A DNA stretch of 37,812 bases from Limisphaerales bacterium. GTDB taxonomy: Bacteria > Verrucomicrobiota > Verrucomicrobiia > Limisphaerales > SIBE01. The position numbers and the translations under genes were made by a program. The DNA lies in assembly GCA_044225505.1 (NCBI GenBank), contig JBGAIN010000076.1, positions 1-37,812 of the forward strand, read 5' to 3'. Each line of letters starts with the position of its first letter. Position 1 is the stretch's first letter. The notes under the pieces were generated by a model. It ran no database searches and was not told the origin of the DNA. It saw nothing but the letters and a program-made list of their open reading frames with translations. Shown here piece by piece: positions 11,185 through 33,226 of the stretch.

Positions 11185-12144
11185 CTACGCCCGCGGATGT
11201 GCTTGGTCGTAGGCTTTCTTGAGACGATCCGTTGTGAGATGCGTGTAGACCTGGGTGGTAACGAGGTGCGCATGGCCCAGGAGCTCCTGGACGCTGCGCA
11301 GATCAGCCCCAGCATCTAGCAGGTGCGTCGCATAACTGTGACGCAGCTTGTGAGGCGTCAGTTCCGGGTCGAGCTTGGCCGAGATGAGGTAGCGCTTGAG
11401 TCGAAGTTGCACCAACCGGGGGTACATCGGCCGGCCCTTCCCTTCATCGGCAAGGAACACAGGGGAACTGCCGGACGGAGGAGGGGAGCACTGGTCCCAG
11501 TAGGTGCGTATCGAGGTCAGGGCGGGTTGCCCGATCGGAATGAGGCGCTCCTTCTTCCCTTTGCCCCGCACGCGAACCACCTGGCGAGACCAATCCATGT
11601 CCTCGACCCGAAGTGCGCAGAGTTCGCTCACCCGCAAGCCACACGAGTAGAATGTCTCCAAAATCGCTAGATCCCGAAGAAACGGCGTTGGCGACACCGG
11701 CGTTTTGGAACTCGCCTGAGTTCGTTGGAAATCTGCGAGCGGCGCTTTCAGAAGTTCAAGCATTTGTTGAACAGTGAGGAAGCGTGGCAATCGCTTTTCC
11801 AGTTTCGGGAGCTGGACGTTCGCTACCGGCGACGTCATGGTGCGTCCGCGCCGGATGAGGAATCGATAGAGGGAGCGGATCGCGGAAAATCGCAGCCGGA
11901 CGGCAGCCCGGCTCAGTTGATGCCGGCCTAAATAGCGCAAGTAACCGCGAAAATGATCTTTCTCCAGCTGAAGCCAGCTGGGGGAGGTTTGATGTTCGGA
12001 CTGGAGGTAGGCACCAAACTCCATCAAAGCCTGGCGATAATTTCGGACGGTGTATGGGGAAACGCTCCGCTCGACCTCAAGATGTTGGAGGAATTCCTGA
12101 GCGACCGGGTCGACTGGGCTGGTTTCCGTCTGGGCCTCATGCAC
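11185..12144 (-). CDS. xerC: Tyrosine recombinase of the XerC/XerD family
   Basis: N-terminal SAM-like domain (SPYTVRNY); catalytic motifs GLRVSEL, GKGKKER, HKLRHSYATH, LLGH and TTQVY. The XerC versus XerD assignment is tentative. Confidence 0.88.
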   Translation of the reverse strand: MHEAQTETSPVDPVAQEFLQHLEVERSVSPYTVRNYRQALMEFGAYLQSEHQTSPSWLQLEKDHFRGYLRYLGRHQLSRAAVRLRFSAIRSLYRFLIRRGRTMTSPVANVQLPKLEKRLPRFLTVQQMLELLKAPLADFQRTQASSKTPVSPTPFLRDLAILETFYSCGLRVSELCALRVEDMDWSRQVVRVRGKGKKERLIPIGQPALTSIRTYWDQCSPPPSGSSPVFLADEGKGRPMYPRLVQLRLKRYLISAKLDPELTPHKLRHSYATHLLDAGADLRSVQELLGHAHLVTTQVYTHLTTDRLKKAYDQAHPRA

Positions 12145-20066: not shown

Positions 20067-23000
20067 ATGATTGGCGTTACCAGACCCGTGATCGTCGGAC
20101 GTTGGGGCTTCCTAGTAATCGTGATTCTGACAGCATTTTTGTCCGACGGACTGGGTGCTACGGTCGCGTGGAAAGCCGGATCCAGTGGAAACTGGAACGA
20201 CCCTGGCAATTGGAGCGGCAATGCCGTGCCCAGTGCGGGAGACATTGTCCTGATCACCAATGCGGGAACCTACACAGTTTCATTGAATGTCTCTGCCAGC
20301 GTTAGCGAGTTAACCCTGACCGCGCCAACGGGAAAGGCATCGCTGCTCTTGAACGCCGGGACTTTAACGATCGACAATCTGGCGACGGTCGGTGCTGGCG
20401 GGGCTTTGCGCCTGGATTCAGGTGGGATCTTGAGCGGCAGTGGAGATATTTCCATCAATGAGTTTACCTGGAGTGGCGGACAGATTGAAGGGGCAGGGAA
20501 GTTGGTATTTCCAGCGGGAGCGGTGGTGGACGTGGTCAACGGAGGGCAACATAACCTAAGGGATCGAACGATCGTGAACGGAACGACGGTGAACTGGCCC
20601 AGCGAGACGCCGACTTACGTGGGTTTTGGCACAGTGTGGCAGAACCAAGCTGGATCGGTCTTGGAGATGAGTGGGGATGCGCAGATGTATTTCTGGGGTG
20701 GCAACCCTGGCTCCTTTCAGAACGCTGGCACAGTGCGAAAAAGCGGAGGAGCAGCGGTCGGCTATTTTGATTGGAATTTCACTAACGCAGGGACTGTGAG
20801 TCTGCAAAAAGGAACTCTCAATTTTCGACAGGGCTACGTCCAGACAGGTGGCCGAACTGATTTGACCGGGGGCAACTACGGCGGTGCGCCTGTTCTCATG
20901 GACATTCAAGGTGGGACATTGGAGGGAGCGGGCCTAATTGACACCGGGGTCTCGATTGGGGGAGAGCTCCGGCCGGGCAATCCCCTTGGGACCCTTTCGG
21001 TCGGGTCGAATTGGAACCACACGAACACCGTCTCGAGCCGATCGATTTTCCAACTGGGCGGGCTCGAGAAAGGAGTGAGCTACGATCATTTTGCCGTCGG
21101 TGGCGCGTTGAACATTAATGGCGAGTTGAAAATCGAGTTTGCGAACGGCTTTGAACCGAGCGGCGGAGACGCGTTTGAACTCATGCATGGAGCCCTCGTT
21201 AAAGGAACTTTTACAGCGACCAATCCGCCCTCGGGATTTGCACCAGACCTAACCTACACGACGACCAACGTCGTCTTACGATTGATAAAGACGGGCATTG
21301 TCGCGCCGCAAATCACGACGCAGCCGCTGAATGTCACCGTGAAAGACGGGCAGCCCGCGAGTTTTCAAGTCATCGCGTCGGGAGGAGGTCTCACCTATCA
21401 ATGGCGGAAGAACGGCACGAATATCAACGGAGCCACTGCCGCGACTTACTCTATTGCAGCTGTCCGGTTTTCCGACACCGGCAGCTACACTGTCGTGGTG
21501 GCCAATGCTGGCGGATCGCAAACCAGCGACGGCGCGGTGTTGCGGGTTATTCCAACGAATCTCGATTCCGGTTTGGTCGCTCGCTACGCGTTCGAGGAAA
21601 ACCTGAACGACTCAGTCAGCGGACGAAACGGGGTTACCAACGGCTCCCCTGGCTACGTGCCCGGCGTTTTGGGGAAAGCGGTGCGCTTAGACGGACGCAC
21701 CTCGATTCCGCTCGGTTCGAACCCAGCCGAGCTCCTCGTGGATGCAAATAACGCTATCTCCGCTTCATTCTGGATCCATCCTCGCGCGCTCAAAGAAATG
21801 GTTCCGCTGAGACTGGCCACCGCATTCGGAGAGTTCGCGGTTTACCTGAGTGCGGGACCGACGGATGGGTACGGAACGCATTTTGGTTTTCGAGGTCATC
21901 TCGGACCCATGACGCGCGATCCACGAGCTACCTTTGAAAGTAAAGTGGGCTGCTGGACCCATGTGGTGGTTGTTTTTCAAGGCGGATCGCCGGACAGCCT
22001 GGCTAGCTATGCGCTATTTATTAATGGTGAGTCTGTGCCGTTCGATTCGTCAGTTCAGCTGGGAGGACCATCCAATCTCAATGAACTGGGAACTAACTTG
22101 CAGGGTGTCAACGGATGGGTGATTGGCGATATGGACGAAGTCCGTGTCTACGGAAGGGCGCTTCTGGCTGAGGAATCCGTAGTCCTCGCCGCGGCGCCGC
22201 CAGAATGCCTGCCGGAGATTGTGCAGCAACCTGTCGACGCTGGGGCTCAGTTGGGCGGAACGATCCGTCTTGAGGTGGGGGCGATCGGGGGAGCGTCGTT
22301 ACGTTATCAATGGTTCAAAGGCCCCATCGCGGTTCCGAACGCGACCAACGCAGTGTATAGCGTCATCGCGGCCCCAGAAATCGAAGGAACGTATTACGTT
22401 TCCGCAAAGAACGATCGGGGCGAAGTTCGCAGCGTCGAAGTGAATGTCAATGTGGTCGTTCCGCCGCCCCCAGGCTATGCTGGCCTTACTACCGGAACTT
22501 CCGAGGCGATTACGGCAGCCTCGTTTCTCAGTCCCTTTTCCGGGTGGTATACGACTTTGGGAGGGAGTGTTTATCTGACGGGTAACGGCGGCAGCACCTG
22601 GACGTTTTCCAACACGGGCTTCAATGTGCCGCTCTACGCGATCCAGCTCGTTGGGGGCGTGGGGTATATCGCGGGCGCGGGTGGAACAATCGGAATTTCG
22701 ACCAACAATGGAGCAAGTTGGATACGCTATAGCACCGGGACGACAGTGACCTTCTACGGATTGTCCTTTTACACATCGCAAAGCGGTTGGGCCGTTGGCT
22801 CGGGAGGGACAATTTGCTATTACAATGGAAGCTCCTGGGTTCCTTACGCCACAGGGACAGGGGAAACGTTTTATTCTGTCGCAGTCGATGGTGGAACCTC
22901 CGGCGTTGCTTGGGCGGTGGGGTCCAGTGGGATCATCTGCCGCTATTCAGGGGGACAGTGGATCCCGGTGCAAACCGGCACCTCAGCGACCTTTTACGGC

Positions 23001-23852
23001 GTGAGCTTTCTCAATCCTTCGTTCGGCTATGCGGTCGGTTCCGGCGGGACGATCTGCCGTTGGAACGGGACGGCTTGGGTTGCCTTGAACACTGGGACTA
23101 CAGGTACGTTCCGAAACGTTGTTATAGTCGATGCGACGACCGCTTATGCCATCGGCGACGGTGGCCTGTTCTGCGTCACGCGCGACGGTGGCACGACCTG
23201 GACTTCTCTGGGCTCGGGCACGAAAGCGAATTTGAACGGGCTGGCCTTCAGCGGTGGGAGGTTGTTCTCCTTCGGGGCAGGCGGAACAGGGTTCTCATTC
23301 GTTTCCCCGGGACAAGTGGTAAATCAACCGCCAAACATTGCCATTCTGTTTCCCGCGCCGAATGCGTCTTTCCTCGCTTGCCTGCATATCCCGGTCACGG
23401 CGGCTGCGAGCGATCCAGATGGAACAGTCTCTAAAGTCGAATTCTACCGTGGCCAGTTTAAGTTGGCCGAGTTCACGACTCCGCCGCCACGAAATCTGCC
23501 GTTCCGGACCAGATTCGATACCACAGCGCTCGGATCGTACGAACTCCGTGCCGTGGCGACCGATAATTCGGGTGCCAGCACCGTCTCTGAGCCCGTGACG
23601 ATCAATGTCTTGCCCTGGCCCTTGGACACCGGCGTCGTGGAGGACTACAACAATCCAGGAGGGTGCACGCTGTGCTTATTCGGGGAAGTTGGCGAAGATT
23701 ACATCCTCCAAAGAACCGACGACATTGTGCCTCCTCAGAACTGGACTAGCATTTCGACCAACAACGTTCCGGAGCCGTTTCTCCGCGTTACGGATACAAA
23801 TGTGGTTGGGCGCATTAAGCGGTTCTATCGATTCCAAAAGGTGAATCCTTGA
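20067..23852 (+). CDS. Large secreted multidomain protein: beta-helix-like region, Ig, LamG, Ig, 7-blade YCF48/BNR-like propeller, bacterial Ig, C-terminal RFYR domain
   Basis: Signal peptide; WNDPGNWS start motif; Ig motifs YQWRKNG and YQWFKG; LamG motifs WTHVVV and GDMDEVRVY; 40-aa propeller repeats; SDPDGTVSKVEFY; C-terminal TDTN...RFYR. Confidence 0.88.
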   Translation: MIGVTRPVIVGRWGFLVIVILTAFLSDGLGATVAWKAGSSGNWNDPGNWSGNAVPSAGDIVLITNAGTYTVSLNVSASVSELTLTAPTGKASLLLNAGTLTIDNLATVGAGGALRLDSGGILSGSGDISINEFTWSGGQIEGAGKLVFPAGAVVDVVNGGQHNLRDRTIVNGTTVNWPSETPTYVGFGTVWQNQAGSVLEMSGDAQMYFWGGNPGSFQNAGTVRKSGGAAVGYFDWNFTNAGTVSLQKGTLNFRQGYVQTGGRTDLTGGNYGGAPVLMDIQGGTLEGAGLIDTGVSIGGELRPGNPLGTLSVGSNWNHTNTVSSRSIFQLGGLEKGVSYDHFAVGGALNINGELKIEFANGFEPSGGDAFELMHGALVKGTFTATNPPSGFAPDLTYTTTNVVLRLIKTGIVAPQITTQPLNVTVKDGQPASFQVIASGGGLTYQWRKNGTNINGATAATYSIAAVRFSDTGSYTVVVANAGGSQTSDGAVLRVIPTNLDSGLVARYAFEENLNDSVSGRNGVTNGSPGYVPGVLGKAVRLDGRTSIPLGSNPAELLVDANNAISASFWIHPRALKEMVPLRLATAFGEFAVYLSAGPTDGYGTHFGFRGHLGPMTRDPRATFESKVGCWTHVVVVFQGGSPDSLASYALFINGESVPFDSSVQLGGPSNLNELGTNLQGVNGWVIGDMDEVRVYGRALLAEESVVLAAAPPECLPEIVQQPVDAGAQLGGTIRLEVGAIGGASLRYQWFKGPIAVPNATNAVYSVIAAPEIEGTYYVSAKNDRGEVRSVEVNVNVVVPPPPGYAGLTTGTSEAITAASFLSPFSGWYTTLGGSVYLTGNGGSTWTFSNTGFNVPLYAIQLVGGVGYIAGAGGTIGISTNNGASWIRYSTGTTVTFYGLSFYTSQSGWAVGSGGTICYYNGSSWVPYATGTGETFYSVAVDGGTSGVAWAVGSSGIICRYSGGQWIPVQTGTSATFYGVSFLNPSFGYAVGSGGTICRWNGTAWVALNTGTTGTFRNVVIVDATTAYAIGDGGLFCVTRDGGTTWTSLGSGTKANLNGLAFSGGRLFSFGAGGTGFSFVSPGQVVNQPPNIAILFPAPNASFLACLHIPVTAAASDPDGTVSKVEFYRGQFKLAEFTTPPPRNLPFRTRFDTTALGSYELRAVATDNSGASTVSEPVTINVLPWPLDTGVVEDYNNPGGCTLCLFGEVGEDYILQRTDDIVPPQNWTSISTNNVPEPFLRVTDTNVVGRIKRFYRFQKVNP

Positions 23853-23922: not shown

Positions 23923-25326
23923 TCATGGATCCCGGTGGCTCGCTGTCAGTATCATCGCTTGTCCGGGGTTTAAACTCAGGGTAACGCATTGGTCGTGAAT
24001 TGCGACCTTGCCAGTGGGATGCGGTCCGTCCACGCTCAAGCTCGCGGTCTGAGCTGTCGTGACACCGTTCCAGCCGGGTGGCAATGTCCAGCGCTTTGAG
24101 CGATAACCATTGCTACTGAAAGCCACGATGGTTCGGTTCAGCCACAATGCCGGAATGAAGAGATCTTCACCCACTCGGATGGCCTGAGAGCCCTTCTCTG
24201 CGTCTGAATTGTTTTGGTAGTACCAAGGCACAACGTCATGGCAGAATTTCTGCAGAAGACCTGAAAGCTGGACTGGATCAGTCTTTATTTCTGGCTCGGC
24301 CCGCATCGGAGTGCCGCAGTAAAGGCTCGGCGGGATCTCTTTGGCCGGCGGTTGATAATCCCAAGCCATGGGTTGCAGGCCGACGAACGCATCTGGACGG
24401 AGAAATGTGCTGCCTTCGCTGGTGACGTCAATGCCTCGATCTCGGAAGTAGCGAAAGATTTTTCGCTGCGCTGCGATTTCTCGTTCCAGTGAGTAACCTA
24501 AGAACGGGCTGATGCGTTGGTCCGACTTGTCTTGGTCGGGATATTTTTCTTGAGGGTAAGCGTGTGGAATTGGGCGCAGAGAGTGGAACGCGTCAATGTG
24601 AATAGTGCCCGCCTCAGCGACGGGGAGCATGTGCAGCAATGCATCAATCCGCTTTCGCGCGAGTCCGGTTTCCCACTCGCGCGCGTAGCTTAGGTAGTAA
24701 ATTTGACCGATGACGGGATCGGTTCCCGGAAAGTCCTCAAACTCGCCTTTGATTAAGCGGCCTTGAGCATCTTTCGCAATCACATCTTGCGCGAGATACG
24801 TGGGCCACATTGGACTATCTTCATACGCATCGAACATGTTGATGTGAAGACTGACGGTTGTGTGATAATGGAAGCCTTCGGCCATTAACCACCGGAGGCT
24901 ATCGACGGCTGTCGGATCTTCGGCGCGTTTCAGTCGAGGATTGACCACCGACCAATCGGGATACTTTGAATCGTGACCATCGTGTTGCCAGCCGACCAAG
25001 TAAACAATCTTCGGGATTCCCAAGGTCAAGTTGTCCAGGCGCCGGATGACGTCGCGCGCTTGGGCGAAGGTTAGGCAAACCTGTGATTGGTTTCCGGTTT
25101 GTTTGAGGGCTAGGAAGATTTTGGTGACGAGCGTTTGGTGATAACGGTGTCGGTAAGGTCGCTCCGGTTGCCTGGTCGCGCGCCAGTCATAATAGTCTCC
25201 GGAGGGGTCACCGAGTCCTCGAGACTCGACTTCGGTAGGGAGAAGCTGCACGGGGAGAAGTAGCGCAATAGCTGCGAGAATTAACCACCTGTGCCGCCGT
25301 GACCGTGATTTATCGAGGCTTGTCAT
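23923..25326 (-). CDS. Secreted GH101-like (endo-alpha-N-acetylgalactosaminidase family) TIM-barrel protein
   Basis: Signal peptide; motifs YLVGWQHDGHDSKYP, HINMFDAY, IHIDAFH and TSEG resemble the GH101 core. Family recalled, not searched. Confidence 0.65.
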   Translation of the reverse strand: MTSLDKSRSRRHRWLILAAIALLLPVQLLPTEVESRGLGDPSGDYYDWRATRQPERPYRHRYHQTLVTKIFLALKQTGNQSQVCLTFAQARDVIRRLDNLTLGIPKIVYLVGWQHDGHDSKYPDWSVVNPRLKRAEDPTAVDSLRWLMAEGFHYHTTVSLHINMFDAYEDSPMWPTYLAQDVIAKDAQGRLIKGEFEDFPGTDPVIGQIYYLSYAREWETGLARKRIDALLHMLPVAEAGTIHIDAFHSLRPIPHAYPQEKYPDQDKSDQRISPFLGYSLEREIAAQRKIFRYFRDRGIDVTSEGSTFLRPDAFVGLQPMAWDYQPPAKEIPPSLYCGTPMRAEPEIKTDPVQLSGLLQKFCHDVVPWYYQNNSDAEKGSQAIRVGEDLFIPALWLNRTIVAFSSNGYRSKRWTLPPGWNGVTTAQTASLSVDGPHPTGKVAIHDQCVTLSLNPGQAMILTASHRDP

Positions 25327-25525
25327 GAGAGAGTTTCCTCAGTTCAACAAACGTCTGCGCTTCCTGCAATGGAAACCTCGGCTAGCCAGGCGCGCTGCCA
25401 AGGACCGCGGCGAATCCAAGTCAACCACGGCAGACCAGACGAAGTCTTCTGCGCGGATCTGATCTGTCTTGCCGCGGCCAACGAAGGCTCGTTCGTTTTC
25501 CTCGCTGCTTTCCTCCGGCAGACGA

Positions 25526-25542
25526 TTGGCACGATGCGTGCA
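25526..25542 (+). promoter_or_regulatory. Sigma-54 (-24/-12) promoter of the four-gene operon
   Basis: TTGGCACGATGCGTGCA differs from consensus YTGGCACGNNNNTTGCW at one position, about 83 nt upstream of ATG 25625. Confidence 0.8.
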
Positions 25543-25624
25543 TTCCACACTCAGAGCTTAACCACGGGCGTTCGGAAGCGGTGGTGAGTTGCTTCTGCGC
25601 AGCGGCCCGAAGCGCATCCAAGGT

Positions 25625-27043
25625 ATGCAAAACTCCGATTACGAAAACCAGTTGTTTGATGAGTCGTTCTACGGTCCGGGGCGGCACGAAGAGCCCGAGG
25701 CGTTTGGCGTGGAAGGCGAACACTCCCTCTTCAGCGACACCGAGGAGACGAAACTGACCGCGGAGATGCTCGAGGTTACGAACGAAGCCGAATTGCAGCA
25801 GTTCCTCCAACGTTTAGTTGCCGGAGGGGCGGGAGAAGCCAAACGCCTGCCCGTCTTTCGTTACCTGGAACCGTTGCTTCGACAGGTTGCCGTCCAGACG
25901 TTGCCGTCGGTGTTCCAGAATGCGCAAGGCGCATCTCTGGGGACCCGCAACGGTACCGCTGGCAGCTTGGCCGACGCGGCCGGGGGTTTGTTTGGACTCG
26001 AATTGGAAGGGTTGAGCCGTGAGGACCAGGAATTTGAAGCGGCGCGGCAATTTGTGCGTTTCGGGACTGCGACCGTGCGCCACGGCCGGCGTTTGCCTGC
26101 TTCGATCCCACCGCAGGCCGCCGCGCGGCGCGCGTTCCATGCGGCAGCCAGACGTTATGCTCCGGGCTTGCATCGCGGGTTCGGGATGCGCAGGCCAGGC
26201 TATCGGGGCGAACCCACTACCGATGCGGCGTCGCCTTTCCCCATTGCGGTGACGTGTGATTGTCATTGCGGTTCGCCAGCCGCAGAAGAAAGCAGTGCTG
26301 CTGGCCAAGCTGCCCCATCTCCTTTGCCGGATAGTCAGCCGGCGAACTCAACTGACTCAAAAACTCTAACCAGTGAAGAAATCCATATGCACGATCTAGA
26401 TCGCACGACCATGGAAGTGACCGACGAAACCGAAGCATTCGAATCCGAGGAATTTCAAGAATTCGAAGGTTCGGGAGACGGGCTGTTTAACGAGGACGAA
26501 GAGGCCGAGATGGCGGCCGGCTTATTGGAGATCAACGACGAAGCGGAGCTTGATCAGTTTATCGGGTCCTTTCTGAAAAAGGCACGAAGCTATTTAGGTG
26601 GGGCATTAAAGTCGCCGTTGCTGGGGCCATTAGGTGGCTATCTCAAGGGCGCTATCAAGAAGGCTTTGCCTATCGCAGGCGGGGCGCTCGGCAATTTGGT
26701 CGCCCCAGGGGTTGGTGGTGCACTCGGTTCTCAATTGGCTTCCAAAGGCAGTTCGATGCTCGGATTTGAAATGGAAGGCATCGCTACGGAGGACCAGGAG
26801 TTTGAGGTCGCCAAACAGATCGTGCGCATGGCGGCAACCGCGGCGCAGGAGGCAGCACAGTCCCCCGCAGCCACTGTCGATCCACAAGGGGCGGCCAAGA
26901 CCGCCATGATCAGCGCTGCCCGCGCTCATCTGCCTGGGTTGCTGGAAGGTCAGGCTAAATCTAAAGGAGGCGGATGTCACTGCCACCGGCCGGGGGGACG
27001 TTGGTATCGCCGCGGGCAACAGATCATCCTGGTGGGAGCTTGA
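25625..27043 (+). CDS. Hypothetical acidic helical protein with two tandem homologous domains and a glycine zipper
   Basis: Repeated blocks LEVTNEAELQQFL / LEINDEAELDQFI and GLELEGLSREDQEFEAARQFVR / GFEMEGIATEDQEFEVAKQIVR. ATG 25625 preferred; in-frame internal ATG at 26387. Confidence 0.85.
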   Translation: MQNSDYENQLFDESFYGPGRHEEPEAFGVEGEHSLFSDTEETKLTAEMLEVTNEAELQQFLQRLVAGGAGEAKRLPVFRYLEPLLRQVAVQTLPSVFQNAQGASLGTRNGTAGSLADAAGGLFGLELEGLSREDQEFEAARQFVRFGTATVRHGRRLPASIPPQAAARRAFHAAARRYAPGLHRGFGMRRPGYRGEPTTDAASPFPIAVTCDCHCGSPAAEESSAAGQAAPSPLPDSQPANSTDSKTLTSEEIHMHDLDRTTMEVTDETEAFESEEFQEFEGSGDGLFNEDEEAEMAAGLLEINDEAELDQFIGSFLKKARSYLGGALKSPLLGPLGGYLKGAIKKALPIAGGALGNLVAPGVGGALGSQLASKGSSMLGFEMEGIATEDQEFEVAKQIVRMAATAAQEAAQSPAATVDPQGAAKTAMISAARAHLPGLLEGQAKSKGGGCHCHRPGGRWYRRGQQIILVGA

Positions 27044-27044
27044 T

Positions 27045-28349
27045 ATGCTGACGGCGACTCCAGCATCCGTTTACTTGGGCGGGGAGGCTCGCTCGCTACT
27101 GACGCGTTTAGCGCGAGTGCGTCCGTTTTCGCTGGAGATCCCTTCGGTTCTCGCTGCGGCGGTGACTCCCCCCGCCCAGACGGCTGTGGAAGCCTATATG
27201 GCTCAAGGGCGGCGACGGCTCCGGGCGATGGTGCTTCGTTACCTGGATTGGCTCAAGGGTCCGGAGGCGCAGAGCGAGACGCCGGCAATATTGCAGGCGC
27301 AGTTCACGCTCTTGCGCTTGGAATTCAACACCATGCTCTCGCAGTTCGACATCTTCGCTGACGCGCTCGTGCAACGGACCGAGGTGGACAATGGGGTACG
27401 CCTGGCGGGGTTGGACGCCGTTGCGGCCGATGCGCTGCGATTGCCGGGCGCTCCATTCGAACCGCCGCCAGTGATCTGTTATTTGGACAGAGGGCACGGA
27501 GCGGCGATTCGGCGTGCTCGGACGCGGCTGCCTGGTGGGGGTGAGAATCCGGTGGCGATCATTCGGGTTCCTCGTGAGCGGATGATCGGCAGCGGCATTG
27601 CCTCGTCGCTAATCCACGAAGTTGGCCATCAGGCAGCCGCTCTGCTGGATTTGTTGCCCTCGTTGCGGGCCACTCTGCAGGTCCGGTCGCATCAGCACCA
27701 AGGGGAGGCGACGGCGTGGAGGATGTACGAACGATGTCTTTCTGAGATCGTTGCTGATTTCTGGTCCGTGGCGAAGCTGGGAGTGTCGGCGACGACTGGG
27801 TTAATGGCGGTCGTCAGTCTGCCCAGAGCGTTTGTTTTCAGGATCAACCTGAATGATCCCCACCCGTTTCCTTGGATTCGAGTGCGACTGAGCGCGGCGA
27901 TGGGGCGAGCGCTCTACCCGCATCCTCAATGGCGGCGCTTGGAAGAGCTCTGGGGCTCGTTTTACCCGCTAGCGGGCCTCGACGAGCGCCGACGTCGCGT
28001 CATCGATCACCTCATCGCAGCGCTGCCCGAGTTCGTGCGGGTTTTGACCCAGCATCGTCCTCGCTTGTTAGGTGGCCGAACCTTGGCGGAGGCTTTGGCC
28101 GTTGCGGACCGCCAACCAACGCGTCTGTCGCAGCTCTATCGTTTGTGGATCGATTCTCCCATGCTCATGCGAAAGGCAGCGCCGTCCCTGGTCTTCGCCG
28201 TGATAGGCCAGGCGCGCGCGGATGGCGCGATCAGTCCGGAAACCGAGAGCCGTCTTCTTACGGATCTGCTGACCTACTGGGCGTTGCGCGGAACTCTGGA
28301 CGCGTCGGCATACTGCGGCCGGAAACTGCGTCTGTTTCGCCGCACCTGA
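27045..28349 (+). CDS. Hypothetical HExxH (zincin-like) protein
   Basis: SLIHEVGHQ (27615-27629), downstream SEIVADFW and DPHP; starts 1 nt after the upstream stop. Confidence 0.8.
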   Translation: MLTATPASVYLGGEARSLLTRLARVRPFSLEIPSVLAAAVTPPAQTAVEAYMAQGRRRLRAMVLRYLDWLKGPEAQSETPAILQAQFTLLRLEFNTMLSQFDIFADALVQRTEVDNGVRLAGLDAVAADALRLPGAPFEPPPVICYLDRGHGAAIRRARTRLPGGGENPVAIIRVPRERMIGSGIASSLIHEVGHQAAALLDLLPSLRATLQVRSHQHQGEATAWRMYERCLSEIVADFWSVAKLGVSATTGLMAVVSLPRAFVFRINLNDPHPFPWIRVRLSAAMGRALYPHPQWRRLEELWGSFYPLAGLDERRRRVIDHLIAALPEFVRVLTQHRPRLLGGRTLAEALAVADRQPTRLSQLYRLWIDSPMLMRKAAPSLVFAVIGQARADGAISPETESRLLTDLLTYWALRGTLDASAYCGRKLRLFRRT

Positions 28350-28395
28350 TCACCACCGAAGCCGAATACCACAGTCACTCTAACCAAATCACACC

Positions 28396-30273
28396 ATGAA
28401 GATACAAACCGTCTCCTTTGACACTACGCCGAAGCTCAACCTGATGCAGGGCCGCCCTGTAAAACTCGATGGCCAACTGATCGACGACAGCCAAAGAATC
28501 TTAACTCCTGAATTGTTGAAGAATTACAGGTTTCAGTGGACAATTTGGCCGAACGAGACGGATGTGCACCCAGATCCCCTCGAGCCTTGGAAGGCGCAAT
28601 GGGTGCCGACGAACGTTGGAGAATACGAGATTCACCTGACGGTAAAAGACGCGGAGCCCAACGCGGGAACGTTGCCTAGTGAAGGGATCCAGTTCTCGCG
28701 TGACGTGCTGGTGCAAGCTTCGGCGCTGAGAGATTCAATTACCGTCACCTTGGCCCCATCGGGGTCAAGTCGCACCAATGATGATGCACTTTTCCAGAGC
28801 ATTCGCGAGAGTACCGCGGCTCTCGATTTTGAAGCTTACCGGACTTTCATTGACAATGTCATGTGTCACGGCCCGGGCGCAATTACCGATACTCGACAGA
28901 GGAATACGTTCCAGGCGGTGAATCGGCGCCGGGCGACGGTGTTCCCCGGCATCGACGCGTATCAGCGGCTCAAAGTGGCGACCGAGGTCTACGTGATGCT
29001 GAGCGTTCGCGTCTTAACGGACTACACCTTCGCGGGGTTTGACCCCGGACTTTACAAGAACAAGCACGGCCAGACGCTGACGCTGGCGGATCTGCAGAAC
29101 CAGTGGCAGACCTATTTGAAGGCAGACCACGGTGCGCTGTTGCTGCCGATCGACCAACTCATCCGCGCGAAGCTCCACGAACCGATCGATCCGGAGCATG
29201 ATCACGGCGTTAGCGTCTGCCAAGGTTTGCTCCAAGAGAAGCTGCGACGCCCCTGTTTCTTTGAGTTGATTTGGTCTTACTGGCACGAGGAAGGAATGCT
29301 CGTGCAAACGATGAAGGCGATCGCCCTGCGTTTTCAGAATAAGCGCACCTCCGAGCACGACCCGCTGGCGAACTTGGATGTGAGTCCATTGCATCCGTTA
29401 AGTAACTTGCTTTGGGGTTATATCCAAGAGGAGCAACATCGGTTGACTGTTCCCAGGCGGGCGTACGAGTACGATCATCAATATGGGTTGTCGCTCGACG
29501 GCAAGGCGGTCCCTATGCTTCGATCCGCGGACAGTCGTTCCAAATTCCTCGAGGCGTTCCACAATCTTCTCCATGGCGCCTTACTCTTTTACAAGCAGGA
29601 CGATGACACCACGAAACGAGCCGATGCCTTCCCAGTGCTCAACGGCTTGAAGGAAGTCCATCTCCTGCTACGCGAAGGAATGCACAATCAGTTCGGCGAT
29701 CTGCCATCGGCCGCGCGCATTGAGATGCTCATGGAACAGTGGATCCTGGCCCGGCCGGAGATGAAAGAGTTTTTGGGCGGCCGTGCCATGTTGCCTTACA
29801 GCGAGGACTGGATGGATCGCGTGGATACCATGAAGAAGCTGAAAGGTTGGACCGATGTTTCGATTACCTATTTCAATGAGTTGGCTGAGTTTGGAGAGAA
29901 GCTCTTGCTCTCCATGCGGCACGGCGATTGGAGCAACATCCACGACGCGACTTTCGCGGCTCATTGGGCCCGAGAATGGCGTCCGGAAATCCAGCAGTAC
30001 ATTCATGCCTATCGCACCGTGACGGGTGTGGATCTCACCCCGCAGCAAGCGGATGTTCGGTTGTCGGCGGATCGCTATCTCCAACCGTCCGTGCACCTGC
30101 GTAAGCGCCTGGAATCTCAGCGCCACCAGACGCCGAGCCGAGCAGGCTTCGGGTCGCCACGCCGCGCGGATTCCGCCATCCCAGCTGGCCATGCGCACAA
30201 TGGCAACTTTGTTACCGACGCGGACCGTCCTAATTCGCGGCGCGAAGCGTTGGAATTGTCCGACGAACTCTAA
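28396..30273 (+). CDS. Hypothetical 625-aa protein with an N-terminal PKD/Ig-like region and an aromatic-rich helical body
   Basis: Long ORF in operon; YRFQWT...GEYEIHLTVKD fits a PKD-like pattern; no signal peptide or TM segment seen. Confidence 0.82.
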   Translation: MKIQTVSFDTTPKLNLMQGRPVKLDGQLIDDSQRILTPELLKNYRFQWTIWPNETDVHPDPLEPWKAQWVPTNVGEYEIHLTVKDAEPNAGTLPSEGIQFSRDVLVQASALRDSITVTLAPSGSSRTNDDALFQSIRESTAALDFEAYRTFIDNVMCHGPGAITDTRQRNTFQAVNRRRATVFPGIDAYQRLKVATEVYVMLSVRVLTDYTFAGFDPGLYKNKHGQTLTLADLQNQWQTYLKADHGALLLPIDQLIRAKLHEPIDPEHDHGVSVCQGLLQEKLRRPCFFELIWSYWHEEGMLVQTMKAIALRFQNKRTSEHDPLANLDVSPLHPLSNLLWGYIQEEQHRLTVPRRAYEYDHQYGLSLDGKAVPMLRSADSRSKFLEAFHNLLHGALLFYKQDDDTTKRADAFPVLNGLKEVHLLLREGMHNQFGDLPSAARIEMLMEQWILARPEMKEFLGGRAMLPYSEDWMDRVDTMKKLKGWTDVSITYFNELAEFGEKLLLSMRHGDWSNIHDATFAAHWAREWRPEIQQYIHAYRTVTGVDLTPQQADVRLSADRYLQPSVHLRKRLESQRHQTPSRAGFGSPRRADSAIPAGHAHNGNFVTDADRPNSRREALELSDEL

Positions 30274-30355
30274 CCCTTAGTCACTCATGCCAGCTTGGCC
30301 TGGCCCTCGAACCACGGCGGCGGGCGGGGCTGGCGCAACTTAAAACTATCGAGCT

Positions 30356-31159
30356 ATGAATACACCCTTCACCTTTGATACTGAAACGTTCGAGTGGATT
30401 GCACCCGAGCCCGAAATCCCACTGGAGTTCGAAGAGGAAGTTCCGCCGCAGGGACCCGTACCGCTGGTTCGGAATTTCTCCAGCTCCGATGCGGATTGTG
30501 CGGCTGCCTTGCGAAGCGCTGGAAAGAGCAAAGCTCAGGCACTGGCCTTGATCAATGCGCAGCTGCGGTCGGCCATTCACATGCTTCGTGTGGCCTCGAA
30601 CAAGCTGAAACCGGGCGTTCGCACGGCTCCAACGGACAACTTGTTCAAAAAGATCTTCCGGGTGCCTCCCACTTTTGTCCCGACGTGGCTCAAACCGACG
30701 GCGGCGATTAAGAACCGTGGAGATGTCGTGGCCGTTCGTTGCCGTCGGGTCGCGGACCTGCTCGCCAGCGGTCGGATTCGGTTCTTCTGTTCTATCAACT
30801 CGGCAAACTGCCCGGATTGCGGCAATGACAACTCCGACTTTGCCTGTTCGAGTTGGGGAGACGAAAGCGTTGCTCCAAATCGAAGTAATGTCATTTGCCT
30901 GGGCGCTCCGTTCTGGGATGACATGAAGCGCGGCAATCGGACGTCGACTTTATCAACGTTGATCCATGAGCCTTTTCATATCTACTTTGGCAAATACGTG
31001 ACCGCGCATGCTCGTCCTGGAGGCGAGTCCGTTGGAAAATTCGGTGGGATCAACTGCATCGTTCGCTTCGTGTTTGAAGTGAACGGCCTGACTGCACCTA
31101 AACGAGTGGTCGACCGGTGCGTTGGCACCCCAGTCCGAAGTGCCGCCACCGGCTTCTGA
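30356..31159 (+). CDS. M35-like HExxH metallopeptidase domain behind an acidic N-terminal leader
   Basis: VICLGAPFW...STLIHEPFH (30965-30979); LFKKIF helix; 9 Cys; acidic first ~30 aa. Confidence 0.7.
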   Translation: MNTPFTFDTETFEWIAPEPEIPLEFEEEVPPQGPVPLVRNFSSSDADCAAALRSAGKSKAQALALINAQLRSAIHMLRVASNKLKPGVRTAPTDNLFKKIFRVPPTFVPTWLKPTAAIKNRGDVVAVRCRRVADLLASGRIRFFCSINSANCPDCGNDNSDFACSSWGDESVAPNRSNVICLGAPFWDDMKRGNRTSTLSTLIHEPFHIYFGKYVTAHARPGGESVGKFGGINCIVRFVFEVNGLTAPKRVVDRCVGTPVRSAATGF

Positions 31160-31550
31160 TCCAACGCCGACGATTCAAGCCAACCGGGGCGAGACTCCCT
31201 GAGGTTGGACGGATACCGCCAAGAGTCTTGACGCAAAGTGATCGGGATTAACTCGAGGGCTCCGGCGGTATCGATACGGAGTTTGGGCATTCCCGCTTAC
31301 TGTTTTCCGAGGAGGCCTTCCTCAAGGCGGTGGCGTTGCGCGCGGATGTCAAATCGGCTCGTCTTGGATCCCGTTTTTCGGGATCAAACCGCGCCTTGGT
31401 GAGCTCCATACCACTATTCTTGAACGTGCCTTCGAGGTGGCCATATGCTCAATACTCGCCTGAGCACGAGTTGGTTACCGTTGTGCTGGTTCCCTTGTTT
31501 CGCTCTTCGTAAGGCCTCTATGGGTTGACCCACCGCGGTTCCTTCGCTTC

Positions 31551-31594
31551 TGACCCACTGGTAACCCACTGCGGAGTGGGTTACCAGTGGGTCA
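31551..31594. repeat. Perfect 20-bp inverted repeat built from 11-bp subunits
   Basis: TGACCCACTGGTAACCCACT-GCGG-AGTGGGTTACCAGTGGGTCA; an extra partial unit TGACCCACCG at 31526-31535. Confidence 0.88.
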
Positions 31595-31744
31595 CCTGCG
31601 ACAGAAGAGCGGCAGAAGACCGACTGGAGCACCTCGGAAGAACACTATCGTCGTGGCTTCAGGCAAGACAACAGAGCGTCCTCGAATCCGTCGGTAAGGC
31701 CTTGATAACAAACGCTCTGGATGCAATTTGAGAGCGATCTAGAA

Positions 31745-33226
31745 TTACGGTGCCGCCATGGCAGTGGCTATTTCGCTGGAATTTGTGTCCGGGATCGCGT
31801 CCGGTTGTTCAAAGCAGGCGATCTGATCCTTTTCAGCTTGCTGGCGTCGAGCCGCACGGCGCAATTGTAATGCCCGATCAGTAACCTGGAGTCTTTTGGC
31901 AGCTCGCTGGAGATTGCCGTTTTCGTCGTCCAAGGCCGTTTGGATGGCGAGCTCCGCGGTCAGATTGTTGATCCCTCTAAGCCCGACGCCCATCGCCAGC
32001 GCCCGGCGGATGCCATCCTGGAAATGGCTGTCCTGCCAAGGTCGGCGCAGCCCGTCCGTGTCAGCGATTCGTTCTTCGGGAGGAACGTCCCCGACGGTGA
32101 GCGGACCATCCCCCACATGTCGACTCAACATCCGCGTTACCAAGTGGCGCAGCTCCCGAATGTTGCCTGGGTAATCGCGCGTGAGCAGGTAATCGCGAAC
32201 GGCCGCATCCGGTTCGGGCGGCGGTGTGTGCCCGGACATTTGTTGGAGAAAATGTCGACTTAGCGGCAAGATATCCTGCCGACGTGCGCGGAGCGGAGGC
32301 AGAGCGAAGGTCCAATTGGCGATCCGATAGTAAAAGTCGCGACGGAATGCGCCACGGGCTTCTTCCTCGATCAAGTTCCGATTCGTCGCGCAGACCAGCC
32401 GGAAGTTGACTTGCCGCCAAGTGTTGCTTCCCACCCGCTTGTAGACCCGCTCTTGGATCACCCGCAACAATTCGGCTTGGAGAGCGAGTGGAAGCTCTCC
32501 GACTTCATCCAAAAAGAGCGTGCCAGAATCGGCTAGAGCAAAAGCCCCGTCACGGGACGAAATCGCGGACGTGAAGGCGCCACGCTCGTGTCCAAAAAAC
32601 TCACTCCCAGATAGTTCAGGAGAGACCGTCGTGCAGTCCAGCACGACAAACGGCCCTTTGTTAGGACGCCGATCCAAGCGGTGGACCAAGCGTGCGATCA
32701 ACTCCTTGCCCGTGCCGCTTTCTCCCGTGATCAAGACGGAGCTATCGCTGAATGCCGCCACCTCCACCACTTGCCGAAGCACCGCGAGCCAAGCCAAGCT
32801 TCCACCGGCCAGTTCTGACTGCAGCTCAGGGGATTGAACGAGTTGATCCACCATCGCGTAACGCTCGAAACGGGCCGCCACCGTCGCGGCGGCGTCGGGC
32901 ATGCTGTCCCAGGCGAACACGTCCGCAGCGCCGGCTTGGAGCAAGCGCCAAACCGAACCTTCGCTCAACGTTTTGGCGGCGGTCCCCACGGCCAGCACTC
33001 GGTCAAAGCCTTGTCGTGACGCTTTTTGCAGCCGATCGCAAAGCGCTGCGTCGACCCGGTCGAAGATGACCATACCCGGACCGCCGGGCGGGTCCTTGGT
33101 TGGCGAAACGAGATCGACGCCGCGTTTTCGAATGGCTTCGATAATGGCGTCGCCGTGAGTGAATCCTCCTGGGAGGTAAGATTGAAACCAGCCTTGGACT
33201 TGCGCGATACGGGAACACGACTCCAT
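31745..33226 (-). CDS. Sigma-54-dependent transcriptional activator (bEBP) with a degenerate receiver-like N-terminus
   Basis: Walker A GESGTGKE, SEFFGHERGAFTSA, Walker B LFLDEV, RRDFYYR, YPGNIREL and a Fis-type HTH (GNLQRAAKRLQV). Confidence 0.93.
   Translation of the reverse strand: MESCSRIAQVQGWFQSYLPGGFTHGDAIIEAIRKRGVDLVSPTKDPPGGPGMVIFDRVDAALCDRLQKASRQGFDRVLAVGTAAKTLSEGSVWRLLQAGAADVFAWDSMPDAAATVAARFERYAMVDQLVQSPELQSELAGGSLAWLAVLRQVVEVAAFSDSSVLITGESGTGKELIARLVHRLDRRPNKGPFVVLDCTTVSPELSGSEFFGHERGAFTSAISSRDGAFALADSGTLFLDEVGELPLALQAELLRVIQERVYKRVGSNTWRQVNFRLVCATNRNLIEEEARGAFRRDFYYRIANWTFALPPLRARRQDILPLSRHFLQQMSGHTPPPEPDAAVRDYLLTRDYPGNIRELRHLVTRMLSRHVGDGPLTVGDVPPEERIADTDGLRRPWQDSHFQDGIRRALAMGVGLRGINNLTAELAIQTALDDENGNLQRAAKRLQVTDRALQLRRAARRQQAEKDQIACFEQPDAIPDTNSSEIATAMAAP

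Follow-up and report, generated by a model that had tools for sequence, protein, structure and literature searches.

A widespread gene module behind a putative sigma-54 promoter, and its possible role in envelope attack or lysis

Introduction

What is the function of four genes without a recognizable family, lined up behind a sigma-54 promoter and faced by the gene for an activator of their own? The question is raised by a locus of a Limisphaerales bacterium (Verrucomicrobiota), on contig JBGAIN010000076.1 of assembly GCA_044225505.1, within a stretch of 37,812 nucleotides (nt) that is referred to here as the window. The four genes encode the proteins designated A, B, C and D, and the activator is a bacterial enhancer-binding protein (bEBP). 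Based on the recurrence of the locus in other genomes, this report describes a widespread, undescribed module, of which the window holds a reduced member. The reading that is tentatively favoured, with a probability not quite reaching one half, is that the module is inducible and turns leader-tagged proteins against the cell envelope, as a means by which bacteria may lyse themselves or attack their neighbours. The roles given below to A, B and C, as well as the route of export, are those that we infer.

The genes A to D are co-oriented on the + strand, with intergenic gaps of 1, 46 and 82 nt, and the bEBP gene runs towards them from the other side. In this respect, the open reading frame (ORF) listing and the sequence agree with the original prediction, which had been made from the letters of the DNA and had described a four-gene operon behind a -24/-12 promoter with a convergent bEBP. 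All five ORFs are intact in the window. The features on which the following sections draw are:

25527..25542, + strand, sigma-54 -24/-12 promoter (putative), TGGCAC-N5-GTGCA, sequence TGGCACgatgcGTGCA, motif conserved across loci
25625..27043, + strand, gene A, from the ORF listing and the sequence, with an alternative in-frame TTG start at 25589
27045..28349, + strand, gene B, 434 amino acids (aa), from the ORF listing
28396..30273, + strand, gene C, 625 aa, from the ORF listing
30356..31159, + strand, gene D, 267 aa, from the ORF listing
31745..33226, - strand, bEBP gene, from the ORF listing and a PF00158 match

Recurrence of the module and its reduced form in the window

At least 540 relatives of C came up in a scan of one genome per species, in which 600 pattern matches were listed; of these loci, the best 80 were kept. 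Synteny was read from 58 loci that have at least 3.5 kb upstream and at least 6.5 kb downstream of C. A and B stand beside C in every one of them (58/58), an orthologous bEBP (E < 1e-90) completes the set in 56/58, and the bEBP gene is convergent and downstream in 55/58. The original prediction had mentioned that A-, B- and C-like proteins occur together in other environmental bacteria, and had proposed profile searches with neighbourhood analysis as the test of whether these three and the bEBP co-occur in other genomes; the co-occurrence proves to be real, and the four do travel together, as expected of the self-contained module that had been envisaged. A metagenome scan added 570 more C relatives among 583 matches and left the synteny unchanged.

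The well-flanked loci span about nine phyla. Among the best 80 loci, carriers occur within the Verrucomicrobiota, Acidobacteriota, Methylomirabilota, Nitrospirota, Planctomycetota and Myxococcota, as well as many Pseudomonadota, a Smithellaceae metagenome-assembled genome (MAG) and a 'Clostridia' MAG; cultured carriers belong to the genera Janthinobacterium, Massilia, Duganella, Pseudoduganella, Rugamonas, Cupriavidus, Thauera, Microvirga and Myxococcus. Since many phyla carry the module, yet none of 60 genomes from the host's own genus, family and order carries C (0/60), it is accessory and horizontally scattered.

Two further enzymes belong to most of the well-flanked loci. An enzyme of the BioF/Kbl/CqsA-like, pyridoxal-phosphate (PLP)-dependent type directly follows C in 53/58, and an Amidohydro_2 enzyme is encoded immediately before the bEBP, likewise in 53/58; an M20 dipeptidase is present in 8/58. 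The PLP enzyme matches Aminotran_1_2 at E 1e-8 to 1e-14 and the NCBIfam bioF model at 65-76 bits, the latter far under its cut-off. Hidden Markov models (HMMs) for the PLP enzyme and the amidohydrolase detected no remnant of either in the window, and in the rest of the genome they gave weak scattered matches only, probably to housekeeping enzymes. With both enzymes missing, the window copy is a reduced variant of the module. Its closest metagenomic relatives, in which C is 57-67% identical, have the PLP gene after C, and in one metagenomic locus a D homologue lies between C and the PLP gene. As a side observation, the PLP enzyme (e.g. L085:10900-12054 and L005:4261-5331) is a divergent alpha-oxoamine synthase whose weak NCBIfam matches include a CqsA-type autoinducer synthase, which makes a small signalling molecule conceivable.

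The sigma-54 switch

The promoter sits 83 nt ahead of the ATG of A, and its sequence, TGGCACgatgcGTGCA, differs from TGGCAC-N5-TTGCW by a single mismatch. The motif is not significant alone, as the window contains 2 matches vs 1.22 expected. The call is credible because other loci conserve the motif at the first A gene along with tandem palindromes upstream of it: among 69 loci with A and B, 37 have a strict -24/-12 match at the first A gene, same-strand matches elsewhere numbering 9. In the window, the two palindromes are:

25440..25453, strandless, distal palindrome of the CGAA-N6-TTCG type with one mismatch, at -87, putative bEBP site
25482..25495, strandless, proximal palindrome, exact CGAA-N6-TTCG, at -45, putative bEBP site

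For the 37 strict-match promoters plus the window's own, 37/38 have at least one CGAA-N6-TTCG site within 200 bp upstream and 34/38 have at least two, compared with a background of 0.146 sites per 200 bp over 1.42 Mb of locus sequence. The spacing between the two sites is 42 bp in the window and 41-42 bp across loci, and the -87/-45 positions recur in loci of Verrucomicrobiota, Acidobacteriota and Oxalobacteraceae. Paired in this way, the palindromes have the look expected of tandem bEBP sites, and they are put forward as putative ones. The host genome also encodes the sigma factor itself (rpoN; PF04552, E 8e-61, contig C238).

The bEBP comprises a Sigma54_activat domain (PF00158, E 6e-56), an AAA lid and a weakly matched Fis-type helix-turn-helix (HTH) domain, HTH_8; at the GAFTGA position of the sigma-54 interaction domain, its translation reads GAFTSA. 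Across 83 aligned orthologues, the N-domain has a receiver-like pattern without the usual phosphoacceptor position, which suggests a degenerate receiver-like domain. Module-linked bEBPs from other phyla match the window's bEBP at E 1e-106 to 4e-217, whereas its best paralogue in its own genome reaches E 6.5e-61; with cross-phylum orthologues outscoring the own-genome paralogue, the bEBP belongs to a dedicated lineage that travels with the operon, and the claim that the operon has an activator of its own thus stands. The best NCBIfam match of the bEBP is RtcR, at 276 bits vs an equivalog cut-off of 650, and it falls far below every other NCBIfam equivalog cut-off as well. Like PspF, RtcR and NorR, this bEBP lies beside its one operon, with tandem palindromes upstream of a -24/-12 promoter; unlike them, it has an N-domain that their models do not cover and that is receiver-like without a phosphoacceptor. 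In several loci (L085:14558-16853, L086, L097 and others), the 3' end of the amidohydrolase gene shares 13-56 nt with that of the bEBP gene, which converges on it, an arrangement through which operon read-through could be coupled to expression of the activator.

The AAA+/HTH part of the bEBP also matches the RtcR/PspF-type regulator models listed in PADLOC (E 1e-81), and here a first rival explanation arises, namely abortive infection or programmed death, with the bEBP as a sensor of phage or damage and the module as the agent that destroys the infected cell from the inside. The tight sigma-54 control, patchy distribution and swappable effectors would all suit such a function. However, the PADLOC match leaves out the sensor domain of the bEBP and the PADLOC models miss A-D altogether, the window has no phage genes or other defence genes nearby, and loci with as many as five or six cargo genes directed at the wall would be unusual for a suicide effector. 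Abortive infection is therefore decidedly unlikely.

The core proteins A, B and C

None of the four operon proteins falls into a nameable family. A-D have no match in Pfam, NCBIfam, PADLOC (E up to 1) or PHROGs, the lysis families of the latter included, in keeping with the original view that they lie outside the secretion, defence and RiPP (ribosomally synthesized and post-translationally modified peptide) families that can be named. Simple sequence measures reveal no twin-arginine-like N-terminus and no Sec-typical N-terminal hydrophobic core in A-D, and the earlier statement that these proteins are without Sec or Tat signal peptides holds upon inspection of N-termini and hydropathy. In a Kyte-Doolittle scan over 19 residues, no segment of A-D reaches 1.6, the maxima being 1.46 overall and 1.24 in A. 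PDB sequences contain nothing that matches A, B or C.

A measures 472 aa from its first ATG, at 25625, and would measure 484 aa from the in-frame TTG at 25589. The protein is an internal tandem duplication whose halves are 35% identical (E 6e-23):

25625-26386, + strand, A unit 1, an A-family unit
26387-27043, + strand, A unit 2, an A-family unit

Unit 2 opens with the motif that starts stand-alone A genes in other genomes, and with this start motif retained, A is best seen as a fusion of two paralogues. Each unit is charge-segregated: the N-terminus is acidic (net -12 and -18), a helix motif and an amphipathic stretch rich in Gly come next, and an ELEG..EDxEFE segment, acidic again, follows; the former description of A as a duplicated acidic/glycine-zipper protein is confirmed as to the duplication and the acidic and Gly-rich segments. 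Unit 2 ends in a basic tail, GRW.RRG..I.L.G, that is strongly conserved family-wide, and unit 1 has only a degenerate basic stretch at the corresponding position. The N-termini of A-type proteins are acidic-aromatic and related to the leader of the cargo proteins discussed below, preceded in some by CxCxxC. In a VanY cargo protein of another locus (L050:17211-18278), the basic GRW.R..G..I motif, which usually ends A proteins, recurs close to the N-terminus, and the motif thus seems modular.

B contains HEVGH at residues 191-195 and a glutamate, E234, that are invariant in 75 sequences, within a conserved pattern of HEVGHQ and a Glu 39 residues on; its designation as an HExxH protein is hence secure, and the arrangement suggests a gluzincin-like metal site. 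There are at least 5830 B homologues, none named beyond 'hypothetical protein'. The predicted model of B (predicted local distance difference test, pLDDT, 85.7; predicted template modelling score, pTM, 0.84) has an N-terminal three-helix bundle. Fold searches with it matched no solved structure beyond that bundle, the HExxH region being barely covered, and PDB profile searches with B and C gave 0 matches at E <= 10.

C is the best conserved protein of the module. Its homologues number at least 4719, with ~50% identity across phyla, and the named ones are called 'hypothetical protein', save for one annotated with a carboxypeptidase-like regulatory domain. It has an immunoglobulin (Ig)-like beta-sandwich N-domain (residues 1-~110). 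Behind this domain lies an all-helical core of ~470 aa that is very conserved, dozens of its residues being invariant over 112 sequences. The fold of the core is unassigned because the predicted model is poor (pLDDT 58). C has no Pfam match, a single-sequence PDB search returned 0 matches, and a protein atlas offered PKD-like leads (<0.9) for the N-domain only and none for residues 125-580. A complex prediction for B, C(108-600) and the leader part of D, D(1-45), scored 0.02 vs a mark of 0.32, in a run without controls, and carries no weight on binding either way. Two long single proteins, one cluster each, resemble a B-C fusion (P0367; E 4e-132 to B) and a fusion of C with the PLP enzyme (P0368; E 8e-39). 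These fusions weakly hint that the fused partners act together, and they may also be gene-calling or frameshift artefacts.

The makeup of this core brings up a second rival, a RiPP-type maturation pathway in which A proteins are the precursors, with B, C, the PLP enzyme and the amidohydrolase as tailoring enzymes. Several A paralogues with leader-like conserved N-termini and a very conserved C-terminal 15-mer, the presence of an HExxH protein together with small-molecule-type enzymes, and the single B-C and C-PLP fused forms all speak for this idea. On the other hand, A units are ~220 aa long and conserved over their full length, whereas RiPP cores vary; the same leader is found on large folded enzymes; there is no transporter gene; and the window keeps A-D without the PLP and amidohydrolase enzymes. 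As a whole, a RiPP-type pathway is very unlikely.

D, the shared leader and the cargo genes

D consists of a leader and a zincin domain, with HEPFH at residue 204 and conserved cysteines. Its leader, the first ~40 aa, has a net charge of -8 and is a clear copy of an acidic-aromatic sequence shared with other proteins of the module. The original prediction called D M35-like. What remains of that claim is the HExxH motif and the fact that Aspzincin_M35 (PF14521) is touched by 4/54 D relatives at 23.8-30.7 bits, 2/54 being just above the cut-off of 30. D itself has no Pfam match even at E 10, and its family alignment displays no apparent GTxDxxYG, the classical Asp-ligand motif of M35 aspzincins, in the place of the third ligand; what the proteins of the D family have in common is a ..NxC(Y/I) motif along with several cysteines. 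The conserved cysteines of D would fit a function outside the cytoplasm. The catalytic region is found in 126 cluster representatives at E <= 1e-3, and the 54 relatives scanned also carry PG_binding_1 (12), Amidase_2 (5), VanY (4), OmpA (4), eCIS_core (3) and trypsin (1). Based on these domain fusions, D is a zincin domain of a kind that accompanies wall-binding and wall-cutting modules. Close relatives of D carry the same leader, and distant ones start with a different conserved N-terminus. Among the relatives of D (P0267-P0366), the N-terminus of the distant ones reads MYL..., in many cases with GLGACVVP and a conserved R.F.C after it, and might serve as a tag for a different route of delivery.

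Which genes lie between C and the bEBP differs from locus to locus, and a locus may have multiple cargo genes, up to five or six. A Pfam scan of 95 C-to-bEBP interval proteins identified PG_binding_1 in 18, Amidase_2 in 5, trypsin-like domains in 5, Peptidase_M23 in 3, OmpA-like domains in 3, VanY in 2, Peptidase_M74 in 1 and PLD in 1. As judged from these domains, the cargo of other loci consists mostly of peptidoglycan- or membrane-degrading enzymes. Cargo proteins have no export signals, and many of them open with the shared acidic-aromatic leader, the consensus of which is roughly M-x(2-5)-F-x-F-E-A-E-P-F-E. A regular expression for this leader, conservative enough to miss divergent ones, hit 20 N-termini inside C-to-bEBP intervals vs 1 elsewhere in the same loci, a ~160-fold enrichment per residue, and the positive leaders are spread over 16/95 loci. 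In the host genome, D is the sole carrier. An Arg/Pro-rich polycationic stretch lies within <=45 residues after the leader in 7/37 leader-bearing proteins, giving the acid-then-base layout that is also seen in A. With variable genes between C and the bEBP and a leader common to cargo and D, the proposal that D is a swappable cargo with an acidic leader holds up well.

The leader is also an argument for non-lytic export, in which A, perhaps with C, forms a new leader-gated channel or carrier by which tagged enzymes leave living producer cells and B is the leader peptidase. One N-terminal leader is common to A and to unrelated cargo, a tag of which phage lysis has no need; there is more than one cargo gene per locus; the N-domain of C, be it Ig-like or carboxypeptidase-regulatory-like, is typical of extracytoplasmic proteins; and the cysteines of D are conserved. 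Yet, the module has neither a transmembrane protein nor an outer-membrane component, the bEBP is its sole ATPase, and a source of energy for transport is not evident. Overall, non-lytic export is unlikely, albeit the most credible of the alternatives considered here.

The nature of the cargo bears on yet another possibility, i.e. that the module serves a self-directed remodelling of the wall or a developmental autolysis, for dormancy, cysts or release of biofilm matrix, and is no weapon at all. The cargo acts on the wall, development is often under sigma-54 regulons, and the M20 dipeptidase of 8/58 loci would be in place. However, a patchy cross-phylum distribution, with 0/60 relatives carrying the module, does not favour such a function, and cargo swapping, together with PLD and trypsin-like cargo, fits conflict better than housekeeping. 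Self-directed remodelling is accordingly highly improbable.

Proposed mechanism and the case for and against lysis

Under the favoured reading of envelope attack or lysis, a cue would activate the bEBP via its phosphoacceptor-less receiver-like domain, and the activated bEBP would bind the two palindromes and open the sigma-54 promoter. Promoters of this class are very tight, which would suit lethal genes. A and the cargo would then be produced as acid-masked precursors, from which B, acting as a zinc peptidase, would trim or remove the acidic parts. Once unmasked, the cationic Gly-zipper segments of A would permeabilize membranes in a holin-like manner, allowing the signal-less wall- and membrane-degrading cargo to get to the envelope of the producer and, after release, to the envelopes of its neighbours. 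In the window, D would be the only cargo. The net outcome would be an inducible bacteriolysis that serves to compete, to prey on others or to release material altruistically. In favour of lysis are the endolysin-like cargo, the absence of a transporter or transport ATPase, tight sigma-54 control and patchy distribution.

A number of points weigh on the other side. Lysis itself is a proposal drawn from sequence features. Judging by hydropathy, A is without a classical transmembrane helix and hence would be no canonical holin, and the only pointers to peptidase activity in B are the HExxH motif and the invariant Glu. C, despite being so well conserved, has no role in the lysis model, and the PLP enzyme and amidohydrolase of most loci are unexplained by it. 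The window holds no proven peptidoglycan hydrolase, D being linked, by sequence, to wall enzymes solely via the fusions of its relatives. Since the window is also without the PLP enzyme and the amidohydrolase, its copy may be crippled, or those enzymes may be accessory. Simple lysis by holin and endolysin needs no leader. Many diverse cargo genes per locus are a better fit for attack on others than for self-lysis, and for such an attack no export route is evident. Finally, no immunity-like genes were recognized beside the cargo, although no systematic search for them was made.

A bolder reading takes the module as a new, ATPase-free protein route across envelopes, in which the leader pairs with A, B unmasks the pair, and A carries the enzymes into prey, with a small signal made by the PLP enzyme; this is rather unlikely. 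Here, the acidic-aromatic leader of the cargo would pair with two basic parts of A, its Gly-zipper and its C-terminal tail, and B would unmask the complex of leader and A. A would then export the enzymes that degrade wall and membrane from the producer and bring them across the outer membrane of the prey, such that A and cargo would be nature's equivalent of polycation-tagged lysins. Where the module is complete, the product of the BioF/CqsA-like PLP enzyme would feed back on the receiver-like domain of the bEBP, with the result that all cells of a population fire at once. The part of C would be that of a new enzyme or a targeting factor.

Relation to known systems and significance

The nearest known systems share some traits with the module and lack others. 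As in holin-endolysin cassettes and type 10 secretion, the related loci encode signal-less peptidoglycan hydrolases of endolysin-like architecture (PG_binding_1 with amidase, M23 or VanY), co-expressed with small, putatively membrane-active proteins and under tightly timed expression. In contrast to those cassettes, the module is without a transmembrane holin and a spanin, its cargo is leader-tagged with several genes per locus, its core includes the orphan proteins B and C along with the PLP enzyme and amidohydrolase, and it is governed by a sigma-54 bEBP instead of belonging to phage late genes. Swappable enzymatic cargo with a common N-terminal tag recalls polymorphic toxins and effector loading by type VI secretion systems (T6SS) and the extracellular contractile injection system (eCIS), as does the fusion of the D-type domain to eCIS_core in 3/54 relatives; cargo of the Photorhabdus virulence cassette (PVC) carries N-terminal packaging signals. 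However, the module has no sheath, tube or baseplate genes, immunity genes were not recognized, and neither PF05943 (TssC) nor PF04984 (phage sheath) was found in the 95%-complete assembly of the host. Colicins and pyocins, which are released by lysis, offer a parallel: there, too, killing is an accessory and patchy function under tight repression, and its release might be fatal to the producer. They differ in that the module is under sigma-54/bEBP and not SOS control and has no receptor-translocation-killing toxin, lysis lipoprotein or immunity gene; its toxic parts would be an enzyme cocktail and Gly-rich proteins.

Going by sequence comparisons, the module thus appears to be without the defining features tested for its nearest counterparts, be it a holin, an injection apparatus, a PADLOC model or an equivalog-level bEBP. 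In open-access literature, surveyed through listings and the opening parts of abstracts, with subscription journals outside that scope, no description of it was found. What the present analysis adds is the tandem palindromes, the motifs in leader and tail, the domain relationships of D and the recognition of the window as a reduced variant.

If the favoured reading is true, thousands of environmental bacteria in about nine phyla, including cultured Janthinobacterium, Massilia, Duganella, Myxococcus, Cupriavidus, Thauera and Nitrosomonas, share an unrecognized, switchable weapon or lysis device made of unnamed protein families. Such a device would be a new class among the few known modes of bacterial protein release or delivery, and it would account for many genes now called 'hypothetical', given the at least 4719 homologues of C and 5830 of B. 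Its leader could serve as a portable tag, and its promoter and activator as a very tight pair, and the device would point to a natural pairing of membrane-active peptides with lysins. Because the promoter architecture is conserved, the regulatory part is directly testable.

Genome setting of the locus

The host assembly comprises 9.0 Mb in 342 contigs and is 95% complete. The non-coding gap of 585 nt between D and the bEBP gene contains an inverted repeat:

31552..31593, strandless, inverted repeat with perfect 19-bp arms and a 4-nt loop, read from the sequence, in the D-bEBP gap

Lying between convergent genes, the repeat could terminate transcription in both directions, or it may be a repeat element. 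DNA nearly identical to the window is found in activated-sludge and bioreactor metagenomes. Moreover, eight short metatranscriptome contigs from three studies map to A-D at 98-100% identity. Elsewhere on the window, the same RNA runs contributed a single piece, which matches partially, over 35 nt, in the AAA+ region of the bEBP; window stretches without RNA contig cover carry no meaning. The contigs on A-D are a weak hint of transcription, with DNA carry-over as a possible source.

The neighbours in the window are ordinary, and include topoisomerase I, ribosome recycling factor, superoxide dismutase, a tyrosine recombinase and a major facilitator superfamily (MFS) transporter, as well as a GH101-like enzyme and a large Ig/BNR-repeat protein. 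The last two lie upstream of the module, the repeat protein (1261 aa, with Ig, PKD-like and BNR/Sortilin-type repeats) at 20067-23852 and the GH101-like glycosidase at 23923-25326, and neither was seen beside the module in other loci. The tyrosine recombinase, which has XerC/D-like domains, is encoded at 11185-12144, 13 kb upstream of the module.

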